Assembly (NCBI RefSeq): GCF_011745625.1 | Contig: NW_027191453.1 | Coordinates: 1,116,001 to 1,180,000 of the forward strand | DNA length: 64,000 bases | Reading direction: 5' to 3' | Source of the DNA: Cladosporium halotolerans | Taxonomy: Eukaryota | Shown: one piece after another, positions 57,963 to 64,000 of the stretch | Layout: each line of letters starts with the position of its first letter | Position numbering within the stretch: position 1 is the stretch's first letter | Made by a program: the position numbers and the translations under genes | The notes under the pieces: generated by a model | What the model was told of the DNA's origin: nothing | The model's input: the letters and a program-made list of their open reading frames with translations, nothing else | Databases searched by the model: none

Positions 57963-58535
57963 ATGGCACAGGTATCGTGCATTGACTGTTCGCCTTCGAG
58001 TCTGCCAATGCTAACCAGCAATTAGAAAGCGCTCAAAACGCTGGCAGCCCGCAACACGGCCATCCTCAATCGCACCCACCTGATTTCCCTCGGTGTCAAC
58101 GCATTCTTCTTCTTGATCCACTTCCTGCTGTCTTCCCGCAACCTCACGGCTTGGTTCGTCCTGACGCTTCCCTCGCTCCTCATCGAATTCTGGTTCGAGC
58201 GCATCGGTCGCCCCACCCACGACAATGGCGATCTCAAGCGTGCCGGCGAGGACCTCGAGGCGAAGGGTCTGACCGAGTGGATGTGGGACATCACATACTG
58301 GTCCTGGGGCTGTATAGTGCTCGCCGCGCTGGTCGGAAACAAGGCGTGGTACGCTTGGGCCGTGGTGCCGCTGTACTCGGGATGGTTGGCTTTCACGACT
58401 TTCACCGGTGCGAGGAAGGGATTGGCGGGTATGGGAGGCGGCGCGGATGAGGGAGCTTCGAGCGGTGCTGCAGGTCAGAGTAAGAGACAAGCCAAGATGG
58501 AGAAGAGGGGCGGGCAGAAGATGCAGTACAGGTGA
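57963..58535 (+). CDS. SND2: Snd2/TMEM208 (DUF788) SRP-independent targeting protein; exons 57963-57971, 58026-58535
   Basis: MAQKALKTLAARN N-terminus, GEDLEAKGLTEWMWDITYW and SKRQAKMEKRG. Divergent from CDC27 across 535 bp. Confidence 0.92.
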
Positions 58536-60035
58536 TTGCATACGCAGACTACACTCTGGCTTTTACGCTAGGCTTTCCGCCATCACTTCGAGTTCACCGT
58601 ACTTTCCCGCGCCTCCGGGACAGCATGAGGTGGACTACGTGCCGATCCGGCACCGCGCTGCGGCAGAATGCGCGCTCGAGATGCTTCCCAATGGTCTCCT
58701 TGAGCAGGCGATGACAAAGCCTCGCAGACAATCAGCCAGTGGCTCTCAGGCGTGTGCCCTCTGCAGCTGGTTCGACCCATGCACTGCGTTGGCCCGCCAG
58801 GAAGCGCCCCAATGCCTACAGGTTGGAATCGCATTCACCACGAAACGCTACGCGTTTGCTGAAGCTGGTGTCACGCCTGAGGAGGCTTGTACTCACAACT
58901 ATAGGTCCTTAGAACATGTCTAATTGAAAGCAGACTGATCAGTGCCTACAAGAATGTGTGCAGTGCAGTGTCTCTATCTTCACCACGATGTACACAATTC
59001 TATGGCGAAGGGTTCCATACAGCGGTCTCACACTTGGTACGCGGTATGAGCAAGTCACATAGGCCTGCGGTGGCTTTCTATCTGCACGCCATGAAAAATT
59101 GTGGAGACGCTGGCATGGTAATGCCGATCAGTGTTGCCTTGATCGTTACTACTTCGTCTCTCAGCACCAGAAGAGTTTTTATCTCGTTCTCTCGAAGAAG
59201 AGCAGAAGGTTGAATCTCCAGCCGAAGTCTCACGGAAACCGAAGACGGTTGGGATGAGTTCATTCTCCACGACCTCGAGGTATGGTCGCTTACGACGCCG
59301 CCAAAATCGTTTAGCAATAGTGATGCACAAGGCAAAGCACAAACTTTCGGGCACTCGTGGATTTCCGTCATGCATGAACATCACTCGTTCGAGCTCAACA
59401 ACTGTTGTCGAAGGCGAGTAAGGCTGATACACCGCTCTTCGTACGACTCAGTTCCACAATATCAGAGGGAATCCATGGGTCTTGTGCAGGTGTAAGAGCG
59501 ATCATGGCTTTGTGCGAGGAGACAATGATCCTTCAAATCTGGATCGAACCAATTCATTTAGAACGGAATATGAGAAGTGACGTGTACGAATGGCTCTTGA
59601 ACACTGTGGTGTACACAGCAGGCGCATCCGTCTCGATCCCCGATCGTATAACATATCTCGATTGCCTGCTGTAAATCGCGAAGCTGGATTCTCCTTATCG
59701 CTAATTTATGATTCTGCGGAGATGCTCCGCATCTTCTCCACATTGGAGGCTCACCAGGGGGGTATACATTGTCACGTGACTTCACTTAACCTCACTTCAC
59801 ACCGCGTACCCTATACCATATCACAATCGTCTGCCGCAACGCGAGATACGACCAGTAACAGTAAATAGTCAGCCTGAATCATAATCACATGTATACACCT
59901 ACCCACCTATCTACCAACCACCCCCTTCCCTAACCTAACCTCACCTCACCTCCCCCACCCCCCACGCCCGCACCGCGCAACCCCCACGCCCACCCGTCAC
60001 CTATATCTTCACGCGCAACCCGGAATGACACAATC

Positions 60036-60292
60036 AGAACACGAGCAGGCGCTTTAGTCCCCCGTGGCGCAGTGGTAAGCCGCGGGGGACCGGGCCAGAG
60101 CGTGCAGCGCTTTGCTGCAGCACGCCCAGGCCCTTCGCCAGAGACCGAGGACTGTTCATGGGCCGCCCCACCGAAAGCAAAATCCGCCGTCAGAGACCGG
60201 GTTTTCTTGACACCCCCCGAGCGAGGCGGGGTGGTTCTTTTGCGCTGGTGGAGGTTCGAGTCTTGGATGTGTTTTTTGCCTTGGGTTTTTTT
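60036..60292 (+). ncRNA. Candidate RNA polymerase III structured ncRNA, family not recognised
   Basis: A box TGGCGCAGTGG 60065-60075, B box GGTTCGAGTC 60253-60262, T6 and T7 tracts at 60272 and 60286, four hairpins and a closing AGAAC/GTTCT stem. Confidence 0.55.
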
Positions 60293-61944
60293 GTCTTTTG
60301 GTTCAGTTGGACTTGCTTTGGAAGGCCAATGTGATTACGTCATCTGTGAATGCATGAGGGCATAGTAAATGACACCTGCCGCGTCGTTGACAGAGCAGTT
60401 TGAAGTTGAAATCGTTTCGCTTTTCTTGGAGAGTCTCGTTTTGTCTTGATCGTACCTGGTATCAGGCCTCCTCGACCGTGATGATCGTGGTTCTAGCTAG
60501 ACGGGCACATCTTGGTGGCGCCAGACTCCTACACCGGAGTCTAGAGCGTAAAGCCCTCTCGTACTTGAAATGATCTTGGGTAAAAAAACTTCTTCTTGCG
60601 CTGAGTAGACGACAGGGGTGACGCGACGAGCTGCTGGTGGGTGTTAAGCGCAGTAGCACTCTATGTCAGCACATCATGGGCTCAAGCATAGACTTTAGCA
60701 CGTGGGTGAAGCATTAGCGAACCTTGTGGAACGCGCAAATGACGCCACACTGTACCAATTGTTTTGTACTGTATTGTATCAAAGTCAAGAAGTGTACGTG
60801 GCAGGGTGGTCGATGGTACGAGGTCGGGCTGACGAACTCTAGCTGACGTTCGGCCGAGAGAGCTCGCCAAGATCCGTGCAAGCCGGAGGATTGGGGCAGC
60901 AGGCCGGCCGACAGAGCTGACTTCGCGTGCGACAACAGCGATAACGAGCGCTCTCAAGCCGCCGACGGCAAAATTGGGTGTACGATTCAGCGGACGGTCG
61001 GCTAGAGTGTCACTGACGCAAATGTGATTGCGAGCTCATCGAAGCGGAGCGGACACGGCGGCGCAGCTGAATGAGTCTGCCTGCTGCGGTCGAAGGATTC
61101 GGCGAGCGGAGCGATTCATTGGCCGGGCGCCGTTCCACTCGTGTGGCTTCCCGCCTTGCCGCACCGGTGAAGATGTGTGGCCTGAGGCATGTGGCTGACA
61201 AACATCGCGCGATACAGTATCTCGCTGGTGGTGAATCAAGATGGAGTGCACTCGAAGGGTTTCATTGTTGTTGAAATCACTGAATGCACAGCACGAGTCC
61301 CAAACAACGAGGACGAGAGAGAAACAGCGCCGGCCCTACGTTTGTATATATGAGCGGAGCCGGCAGGCTGCCGCAGCACCGGTCACCCTATCGGGCTGGC
61401 GCTAAGATAACCTTAGGCCGGGCTAGCGCGACGCCTCGCAGGCTGCTGCCTAGAATGCGACGCGGTGCCTGCGCAGGCCTGGTGACTTCGCCTCAAATGC
61501 GAAGTCACGCCCTTCCAACCTTGCCCGGGCCTTCGACTCATCGCTCTTCACTCCCGCCTCACCATCCTTTGCATCTCTCGCGCCCACCGCTGCTGCCTCG
61601 CACCATCACCGCTGGCCCTCCCCAGCCTGACCGTGCTGCCGGACCACCGCCCGCACCTGTTTCGCTGGCTCCATCGACCGTGTGGCGACTGGACTGAACA
61701 CCTCAAATCCTCCGGTCCATCTCGTCATTCAGAGCCGGCACTGCGACTGCTGCTGGTCTGCCGCGTCCGATCGAGGATTTCCGCAGTCACACGACTAGCC
61801 TCACCCGGCCGCCGCGTATCACCGTCCCTGGAACCGACGCCGCTCTGCCAACATCCGAAACCTATTGGCCTGCAGCGTGACTCACCTGCCCTCACGACAC
61901 CGATTTGACAATCCTTCCCTCACTTCCTGCGATCTGTCCGGACA

Positions 61945-64000
61945 ATGTCTTCCACCACCCTCCATCCCCGCCGCCGGCCCGCTAGCCCATCAATGACTCC
62001 CTCCCTTCTGGACTCCTTCCAGAACATGTCCATCCGCAAATGGGACACATTTCATGTTCCCCACAAGCACGATAAGGATCTCTGGGACCCGCTGGCTTCG
62101 TCTGCGAAGAAATCTACCACTCCTTCCATGCCGGCCCGCTCCACTACATGCCCCAAATCTCTCGAGGACTTGCTCATTGGTTCCGGCGAGCGTCGCGCTG
62201 CAGACCTCCTCCACAGAGTCGACCAAGCTATTGCGACGCAATCAAAACTCGCTTTGGGCCACGTCCTCAGTGAGCCGGAAGTGCTTCCCGTCCCGGAAGC
62301 CGACGACAGTACCTGCACGCAGATGCACGTCCGCCAATCAAGCCGCCACAGCCATTCTTCTGACAGTGGCATTGGATCTAGCGTCGCATCCGAATCTGGC
62401 AAGTGTCCCACGACCGGTGAGGCCGCCCTGCATACTCGACCCTCTGTCTATAAGTTCCCCGCTGATCTCGATCCAGATTCTCCAGACCTTTCCTCCGCTT
62501 CCAAATCGATGTCCGCCATCTCAGCGGCCACCGAGGAACGCGGTCTGAGCGAGTATGCCAAAGAGCAAATCCACCGCCATATCATTCAGCCGATTCTCCG
62601 CGAGCCCTCACTGAAGGAATTCCATCAACTCCTCAAAGACGTCCCACACCGCATCGGCAGCAGGGAGATTAAGAACCTGCGCGACCTCGAGAAGACTCTC
62701 ATCTTCTGTGCACCGGTAAGTACCTGCAACCGCTTCACGTCGGATTGCGCATTTACTCATGGTGTTTCTGGCGTAAAGGATTATTCGCGCACACCGAGGA
62801 AGTACCTGCACTTCTGCGAACGCACGATCCGAGTTCTGCACACGACGGTCACCACCCTCCACGAGAGCGACCAACGCGCACCGACCGATCGACCGTACAC
62901 GCAAGGCTACTTCTTCGACTTGGTTGAGCAGGTGTGTTTTGGCTGCATTGATCCGGCAATCAGCCTCGCCGTTATTGACATCATCGAACAGATCCGCAGA
63001 TACGCCACTATTCTGGCGGCCACCAGAGAAAGGCAGGCCAAGGGCGAAAAGGCTGAAGAGATGGATTACTCACCGTATGGATCGACCCTGAGTGTTGCGA
63101 TCGGTCGCATGGATCTTCCAAGCGCCCATCAATGCTCCTCATCATCTTCCGATGGTTCACACGCTAACCCACAATGCAGGGACGAGACTGTCTCGCTACA
63201 TGGTGGTCTGAGTCACAACGGAAAGCCCGCCGAGCTTGTCCGTCACAAGGATGGCAAGACTATTTCTCTTGCTACAGGTCGCGTTCTTTCCTCGGACGAG
63301 ACGGCTCATTCATCTTCGAAGCGCGCCATGTCGGACGCTGGCCTGGATGATGCCGACGACGACGACGTGCTTCGCTCCATGGCCAGGCGCAAGAAGAACG
63401 CCAAGCCAGAGATACACGAGTGCCCGCAGTGCGAGAAAGAGTTCAAGCGCCCATGCGACCTCACCAAGCACATCAAGACGCACGACAGACCATACAAGTG
63501 CCCTAACACAAAGTGCAAGTATCACGAATATGGCTGGCCGACGGAGAAAGAGTGTGAGCGCCACGTCAACGATAAGCACTCCGCAGCGCCCTCGTTGTAC
63601 CACTGCCTGTTCAAGCCTTGCCCGTATACATCGAAGCGTGAGAGCAACTGCAAGCAGCACATGGAGAAGGCACACGGCTGGGCCTATGTGCGTTCGAAGA
63701 ACAATGGCAAGGGCAAAGCGTCGGAGGTCTCTCGCTTGCCAAAGGGTCCTGTGCCGCCATCTCCCTCATCGATGATGTTGACGCCGCTTACCCCGATCGC
63801 GCCCTCTCCTTCCACTTCGGCACAGTCATGGGCAACTGGATCACGCCACAGCTCCATGGCGCCGCCGCCCGTCCCTAGCCACTACGGCACGCCAGCCTTC
63901 GTGCAGCCATCACCTGACTTCGCTGGACACTTCAACATGGATTTTGACTTCAACAACATGGAAGCATTCCCCATGACCCCAGCTCTCAGCGAGGACCGAC
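61945..64000 (+). CDS. ace1: C2H2 zinc-finger transcription factor Ace1/SltA, 3' end beyond the window; introns 62417-62476, 62716-62778, 62932-62991, 63075-63179
   Basis: HSSDSGIGSS, NLRDLEKTLIF, GYFFDLVEQIRRYA and three fingers: CPQCEKEFKRPCDLTKHIKTH, CKYHEYGWPTEKECERHVNDKH, CPYTSKRESNCKQHMEKAH. Missing from the ORF track because the frame has no stop in the window. Confidence 0.93.
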   Translation, partial: MSSTTLHPRRRPASPSMTPSLLDSFQNMSIRKWDTFHVPHKHDKDLWDPLASSAKKSTTPSMPARSTTCPKSLEDLLIGSGERRAADLLHRVDQAIATQSKLALGHVLSEPEVLPVPEADDSTCTQMHVRQSSRHSHSSDSGIGSSVASESGKCPTTGEAALHTRPSVYKFPADLDPDSPDLSSASKSMSAISAATEERGLSEYAKEQIHRHIIQPILREPSLKEFHQLLKDVPHRIGSREIKNLRDLEKTLIFCAPVSTCNRFTSDCAFTHGVSGVKDYSRTPRKYLHFCERTIRVLHTTVTTLHESDQRAPTDRPYTQGYFFDLVEQVCFGCIDPAISLAVIDIIEQIRRYATILAATRERQAKGEKAEEMDYSPYGSTLSVAIGRMDLPSAHQCSSSSSDGSHANPQCRDETVSLHGGLSHNGKPAELVRHKDGKTISLATGRVLSSDETAHSSSKRAMSDAGLDDADDDDVLRSMARRKKNAKPEIHECPQCEKEFKRPCDLTKHIKTHDRPYKCPNTKCKYHEYGWPTEKECERHVNDKHSAAPSLYHCLFKPCPYTSKRESNCKQHMEKAHGWAYVRSKNNGKGKASEVSRLPKGPVPPSPSSMMLTPLTPIAPSPSTSAQSWATGSRHSSMAPPPVPSHYGTPAFVQPSPDFAGHFNMDFDFNNMEAFPMTPALSEDR

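Follow-up and report, generated by a model that had tools for sequence, protein, structure and literature searches.

A short intergenic unit (60036-60292) located 5' of an ACE1-type C2H2 zinc-finger gene (ace1) is interpreted here, with a probability of about one half, as a tRNA-gene-derived unit of Pol III type which has lost its tRNA. All positions refer to the window, i.e., the whole 64-kb stretch of DNA that was analysed. According to this interpretation, the unit would have retained, in this order on the + strand, an A box that matches the consensus, a B box close to consensus and terminators in the form of T runs, while its cloverleaf would have been lost, as suggested by unpaired acceptor arms, a missing anticodon arm and a degenerate T stem. 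The boxes stand 177 nt apart, with GC-rich DNA including a palindrome in between. Judged from sequence likeness, the unit may descend by decay and insertion from a tRNA gene, possibly the tRNA-Trp gene retained by relatives in the same neighbourhood. If functional, it would presumably act via its boxes: by analogy with yeast loci, TFIIIC would be recruited to the B box, and a low level of Pol III transcription might yield a putative RNA of ~215-230 nt ending at the T6 run. The candidate is most likely not a conserved structured RNA.

The start of the ace1 ORF at 61945 is confirmed by an alignment of 20 homologs; among named homologs, that of Cladosporium fusiforme is the best (76 % identity). 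Both the ACE1-type identity of this gene and the placement of the candidate in the gap before it, as proposed in the initial annotation, are supported. The candidate lies on the ace1 strand (+), in tandem with ace1 and 1.65-1.9 kb 5' of the start codon. Its surroundings display a marked strand asymmetry, with a C-rich part (59850-60050; GC skew -0.7 to -0.8 across 59850-59999 on the + strand) followed by a G/T-rich one (60200-60350). Overall, two strongly C-rich + strand tracts were noted, 59890-60000 (GC skew down to -0.8) and 61500-61650 (-0.5), the latter directly preceding the 5' ends of the ace1 RNA contigs. Direct reading of the sequence recovered every element of the original motif list at its coordinates (Table 1).

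Table 1. Sequence and structure elements of the candidate unit and its immediate 5' flank (window positions)
Element	Position	Strand	Description
TATA-like CTATAT	60001-60006	+	~50 nt 5' of hairpin 1, at the end of the C-rich tract 59890-60000
Stem AGAAC/GTTCT	60036-60040/60234-60238	+	direct reading
Hairpin 1	60057-60090	+	12-bp stem (60057-60068/60079-60090), 10-nt loop; holds the A box
tRNA-Trp 5'-like segment	60063-60089	+	acceptor-arm end, D arm, anticodon-stem start; local alignment
A box TGGCGCAGTGG	60065-60075	+	pattern match; inside hairpin 1
Hairpin 2	60092-60133		near-perfect DNA palindrome, GGGCC/GGCCC with nested GCGTGC/GCACGC
GC-rich interior	60134-60245	+	three further stems of the initial annotation and repeat CAGAGACCG
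Stem AAAATCCG/CGGGTTTT	60179-60186/60198-60205	+	direct reading
Stem CACCCC/GGGGTG	60211-60216/60228-60233	+	direct reading
B box GGTTCGAGTC	60253-60262	+	pattern match; within T-arm-like piece 60252-60266
T6 run	60272-60277	+	candidate Pol III terminator
T7 run	60286-60292	+	candidate Pol III terminator

The proposed Pol III signals are present, with A box, B box and T runs following one another on the + strand and the B box located 177 nt 3' of the A box (between 60075 and 60253). Each box alone is unremarkable against chance expectation: the A-box pattern has two matches in the 64-kb window (0.89 expected) and the B-box pattern a single one (0.55 expected). Runs of T6+ number only six on the + strand of the whole window, two of which are found within 35 nt 3' of the B box, and a T6+ run within 60 nt downstream is true for 0.44 % of strand positions. 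For the joint order of A box, B box and T run, a rough estimate assuming independence yields a chance occurrence of ~5e-6 per window. Due to the order of the boxes on one strand within 190 nt and the two rare T6+ runs, this Pol III type-2 layout is non-random, i.e., unlikely to be chance. Natural distances between A and B box in yeast tRNA genes range from 31 to 93 bp, as quoted in PMC11724288. The gap of 177 nt is about twice that range, and efficient Pol III transcription of the unit is therefore doubtful.

An unlikely alternative is that the motifs are a chance assembly, devoid of tRNA ancestry and of any Pol III role, within a Pol II promoter or a region free of nucleosomes, in which tracts rich in C and in T, together with GC-rich palindromes, precede a transcribed stretch. 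The strand asymmetry described above is typical of fungal promoters, 60429-61002, immediately 3' of the candidate, is covered by RNA contigs of one run (from a relative with 4-7 % difference), the count of each single box is within expectation, and since very many windows were scanned, rare coincidences are to be expected somewhere. Such an assembly would, however, have to combine an A box and the sole B box with two of the six T6+ runs, correctly ordered and on a single strand. It would also have to account for the tRNA likeness of the candidate, which extends over 27 nt, i.e., beyond the A box (0/500 shuffles), and is confined to the + orientation.

This likeness was assessed against tRNA genes detected at the ace1 loci of two relatives (L003 and L005, see below). 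The tRNA-Trp 5'-like segment aligns with the first 36 nt of tRNA-Trp with scores of 34 (L005) and 32 (L003), a level that neither dinucleotide shuffling of the surrounding 1301 nt (0/200) nor shuffling of the candidate (0/500) attained. A tRNA-Leu included as control lacks such likeness in its 5' part (288/500 shuffles), tRNA-Leu being the only non-Trp control and the D-arm/A-box region being generic to many tRNAs. At the opposite end of the unit, the piece around the B box is identical in 14 of 15 nt to the T arm of the L005 tRNA-Leu, a score reached by 9 of 500 shuffles. Gapped alignments of the candidate to three tRNA genes including their trailers were matched by none of 300 block shuffles each in + orientation, as compared to 78, 265 and 88 of 300 in - orientation. 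Within the candidate, no segment resembles the tRNA-Trp 3' exon significantly (450/500 and 302/500 shuffles score as well), and the upstream flanks could not be aligned (41/300 and 99/300 shuffles). The T-rich 3' end bears a weak resemblance to the tRNA-Trp trailer (4/500 shuffles for L005, 198/500 for L003). A collinear alignment of the whole unit to tRNA-Trp made by eye (anticodon CCA, T stem ATCCG/CGGGT and acceptor) was rejected, as its 3' exon was not significant.

A T-arm-like hairpin, GATCC / TTCAAATCT / GGATC, was observed further upstream at 59522-59546 (+). It represents the best + strand match of the region to the tRNA-Trp 3' exon (3/200 shuffles for L005, 14/200 for L003), sits upstream rather than downstream of the 5'-like piece, and may be a second tRNA scrap or due to chance.

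That the candidate is not a tRNA, as had been stated, was corroborated by negative results. ARAGORN predicted no tRNA gene in the 64-kb window, also when introns of up to 3000 nt were allowed, and the Rfam tRNA model was without match in the candidate at E up to 10; the same ARAGORN settings and the Rfam tRNA model recovered the tRNA genes of L003 and L005 as positive control. At a threshold of 80 %, ARAGORN returned four overlapping junk calls in 1301 nt. The segment 60058-60064 (TCCCCCG, the 7 nt preceding the A box) does not pair with 60267-60273 (ATGTGTT) following the T-arm-like piece; its complement is found at 60082-60088, inside hairpin 1. Likewise, the T-arm-like stem GGAGG/CTTGG pairs at only three of five positions. 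Neither cloverleaf nor complementary acceptor strands nor the A-B distance of a tRNA gene is found in the candidate. It combines A box, B box and terminator with the lack of a functional tRNA, as is characteristic of tRNA relics and ETC-type sites.

Hallmarks of U1-U6, SRP, RNase P/MRP and U3 had not been detected in the initial annotation, which recommended a covariance search. The Rfam 15 covariance models produced no match at gathering score in 64 kb, and at E up to 10 only bacterial sRNA/miRNA models appeared, with 13-17.2 bits as compared to thresholds of 44-76. Strings resembling CR-I of RNase P/MRP and an Sm site, seen by eye, were rejected, being without Rfam support.

The stem of hairpin 1 comprises 11 Watson-Crick pairs and one G.T pair, which turns into an A.C mismatch on the opposite strand. 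Together, the two 5' hairpins (60050-60140) fold with z -3.91 on the + strand and z -4.33 on the reverse strand, none of 200 dinucleotide shuffles being as stable in either case. Because of this equal stability, they are regarded as DNA palindromes without strand preference; a two-hairpin covariance model likewise scores 22.3 bits for hairpin 2 when the minus strand is read. The 3' half (60134-60245), within which CAGAGACCG starts for the second time at 60191 after a first occurrence at 60139, folds at chance level (z +0.36; 127/200 shuffles fold at least as well), and the whole 265 nt attain z -1.55 on the + and -1.37 on the - strand. Excess structure is confined to the two palindromic 5' hairpins, and the other stems are at chance level. 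Folding beyond composition on one strand, as expected of a generic structured ncRNA, is not displayed by the candidate, and the ~200-nt structured RNA gene originally proposed is accordingly not supported. Extended pairing between the C-rich and the G/T-rich flank (59810-60350) was considered and rejected (z -0.46). An exact 20-nt pattern taken from hairpin 1 occurs once in 596 billion bases of genome contigs, in a cyanobacterium, which is irrelevant since about one chance match is expected for a 20-mer in that many bases; viral contigs contain no match.

The same hairpins would form the 5' domain of the putative RNA if the unit were a lineage-specific Pol III gene for an ncRNA of ~215-230 nt built of tRNA-like pieces and extending from ~60045-60055 to the T6 run. 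Such a young gene would have been assembled from tRNA fragments, with an extended D-arm hairpin holding the A box, a palindromic hairpin and a B box inside a ~220-nt transcript. This possibility is regarded as distinctly unlikely. It draws on the full type-2 arrangement of consensus boxes and scarce T runs, on two very stable hairpins (z -3.91), on the G.T pair that is disrupted on the - strand and on boxes that are intact although the tRNA shape is gone. These points are opposed by the equal stability of the hairpins on the minus strand (z -4.33), by folding of the remainder at chance (whole z -1.55) and by an A-B gap of 177 nt outside the 31-93 bp quoted for yeast tRNA genes (PMC11724288). 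Moreover, no homolog was retrieved by sequence or covariance model (33 sources, 388,506 bases) or by blastn (80 loci). If true, it would reveal a tRNA gene in transition to a new RNA gene or to a boundary of ace1 that depends on TFIIIC; the new RNA gene would reside beside ace1, a stress/cellulase regulator, where relatives keep a tRNA-Trp.

For comparison with relatives, 80 metagenome loci encoding ACE1 relatives were gathered via the ACE1 homolog alignment. The conservation and covariation expected of an RNA gene, for which a check had been suggested, did not emerge: no related sequence or structure was found in these 80 ace1 loci. Blastn of 58500-61944 gave nothing matching the candidate, and the two-hairpin covariance model found only itself when applied to the window plus 32 loci, i.e., to 33 sources, among them all loci in which ace1 has a long upstream flank. 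L003, L005 and L027, the nearest loci providing at least 1.7 kb of upstream sequence, are distant, with 65-68 % ACE1 best-segment identity to the window, and most of their intergenic DNA could not be aligned, not even that of L003 with that of L005. Only two conserved blocks were recovered by blastn, 61066-61191 and 61797-61944, in L001-L005 and L027, both with 66-82 % identity. The former is common to L003, L005 and L027, lies ~750-880 nt 5' of the ace1 start codon and is outside the ace1 leader suggested by RNA contigs, the latter is common to L001-L005 and L027. A short-word search yielded only matches of 14-15 nt to the A-box region, in L003 and L005.

These two are also the only loci among the 80 with a tRNA upstream of ace1. 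The respective genes, L003 7708-7792 (-) with a 13-nt intron and L005 8538-8649 (-) with a 40-nt intron, score 49.4 and 43.6 bits with the Rfam tRNA model. Both are intact intron-containing tRNA-Trp(CCA) genes, the acceptor stems of which carry compensatory changes between them; the L003 copy is read as Trp, though ARAGORN says Gly, because it has the same anticodon loop as the L005 gene. Both genes are located 2.2 kb (L003) and 1.35 kb (L005) 5' of the ace1 start codon and are divergent to ace1. A 3' trailer of ~25 nt preceding the T run is partly conserved between both loci, and beyond the tRNA, away from ace1, the two have no DNA in common. The two window genes upstream of the candidate are absent from all 80 loci, and neither L003 nor L005 shares upstream genes with the window, nor do they with one another. 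As no synteny among the window, L003 and L005 extends past the tRNA, the position cannot be anchored from the far side. Direct orthology of the candidate with the relatives' tRNA-Trp would, moreover, need an inversion, given the tandem orientation here and the divergent one in L003 and L005.

Insertion of one copy of a tRNA-derived SINE or small mobile element 5' of ace1 appears improbable. Like fungal tRNA-derived SINEs, the unit has a tRNA-like 5' end, internal A and B boxes and a lineage-restricted presence; its tRNA-like ends are chimeric (Trp-like 5' part and Leu-type T arm), its 3' end is T-rich, it is missing at the same position in relatives, and it is flanked by an 8-nt direct repeat, AATGACAC, at 60024 and 60368. 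In SINE heads, both boxes are accommodated within a ~70-nt tRNA-like part. Unlike these, the boxes of the window unit are 177 nt apart, an A-rich, simple-repeat or otherwise typical tail is missing, and no second copy was found within the 64-kb window or in the 80 loci. The repeat, the only flanking one that could represent target-site duplications, is within chance, since exact 8-nt repeats at that spacing are expected ~3-4 times per 700 nt (estimate) and several others are present. The fallback offered initially, a SINE-like element or a TFIIIC boundary, is retained in part: the likeness of the 5' part to tRNA-Trp makes a TFIIIC site or tRNA-derived element a better fit than an RNA gene, whereas the box spacing of SINEs is not found.

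RNA contigs from four metatranscriptome runs were compared with 59000-62500 at 90 % likeness. None of the four runs provided contigs over 60036-60292, which is uninformative with respect to expression, as the contigs are assembled and of unknown library type. Three low-depth contigs of one run, derived from a relative 4-7 % different with indels of 1-2 nt, cover 60429-61002. They could stem from a non-coding transcript missing from the annotation or from residual DNA in the library, and the stretch just 3' of the T-rich tract may be transcribed. The same stretch contains a C-box-like GTGATGA at 60479-60485 and a CTGA ~120 nt downstream near 60602; a terminal stem and a match to Rfam snoRNA models were not found for this pair, which is probably due to chance. 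Within ace1, contig joints in all four RNA runs revealed a 60-nt GT..AG intron (62416-62475), which is in frame and stop-free, so that the raw ORF reads through it. Several metagenomic ACE1 homologs in the alignment appear to carry unspliced introns as insertions.

An ace1 mRNA with a long 5' leader that includes the candidate is considered highly improbable. The candidate lies on the ace1 strand directly 3' of a C-rich tract and a TATA-like site, and conserved non-coding blocks follow further downstream. A second C-rich tract is, however, present at 61500-61650, and RNA contigs of three runs start at 61571, 61600 and 61624, which is only a weak hint since contigs do not map transcript starts. 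Furthermore, ATG is absent from 61571-61944 and occurs 21 times in 60040-61944, which argues against inclusion of the candidate in the ace1 leader.

Reading the unit as a tRNA-gene relic is itself confronted with opposing evidence. Decay alone does not explain the 177-nt gap, which also argues against efficient use as promoter. Formation of a 12-bp stem from former acceptor and anticodon-stem strands would need several coordinated changes and could therefore point to selection for the hairpin. Consensus boxes in the face of a fully lost cloverleaf could also fit a functional non-tRNA gene. If bound by TFIIIC or transcribed, the relic would represent a filamentous-fungus counterpart of yeast tRNA relics and ETC sites, and tDNA-type insulation of ace1, a well-studied regulator, would become testable. 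If inert, it would be an ordinary decayed tRNA gene and a caution against taking consensus A and B boxes accompanied by some GC-rich palindromes for an RNA gene. A literature search on Pol III and tRNA in Cladosporium and on tRNA pseudogenes of filamentous fungi returned nothing relevant, and no claim is made that such a locus is unpublished.

Among known systems, a parallel to yeast SNR6 (U6) had been drawn before. It holds with respect to the B box, which is far from the A box and near the 3' end of the unit, and fails in two other respects: the window unit is without match to U6 or other snRNAs at E up to 10, and its B box is upstream of the first T6 run and would therefore be inside the transcript, unlike the downstream B box of SNR6. 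Closer at hand are the tRNA-Trp genes of L003 and L005, which occupy the same neighbourhood 5' of ace1 (1.35-2.2 kb in the relatives, 1.65-1.9 kb in the window) and with which the unit shares a 14-15-nt exact match across the A box and the significant 27-nt alignment. These genes are intact and divergent to ace1, whereas the window unit is in tandem with ace1 and possesses neither cloverleaf nor a match to the 3' exon.

Most knowledge of such tRNA relics and ETC sites stems from budding yeast and mammals. The window unit belongs to a fungus of a different class (Cladosporium-like) than the hosts of the yeast loci ZOD1 and YGR033C. The latter are defined by occupancy of TFIIIC and Pol III; in contrast to them, the window unit has a 177-nt A-B gap harbouring two strong palindromic hairpins, and its tRNA ancestry is supported only for the 5' 27 nt and 15 nt round the B box. 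PMC5356446 describes ZOD1 as an ancient tRNA-Ile gene with weak Pol III transcription and the YGR033C locus as descended from a tDNA-Arg ancestor. Like these two and ETC sites, the window unit is located between Pol II genes and displays tRNA ancestry only in fragments. As in ZOD1 and YGR033C, boxes would have been kept and the tRNA lost, and by analogy with the yeast loci (PMC5356446), at most weak Pol III transcription would be expected from the unit upstream of ace1.
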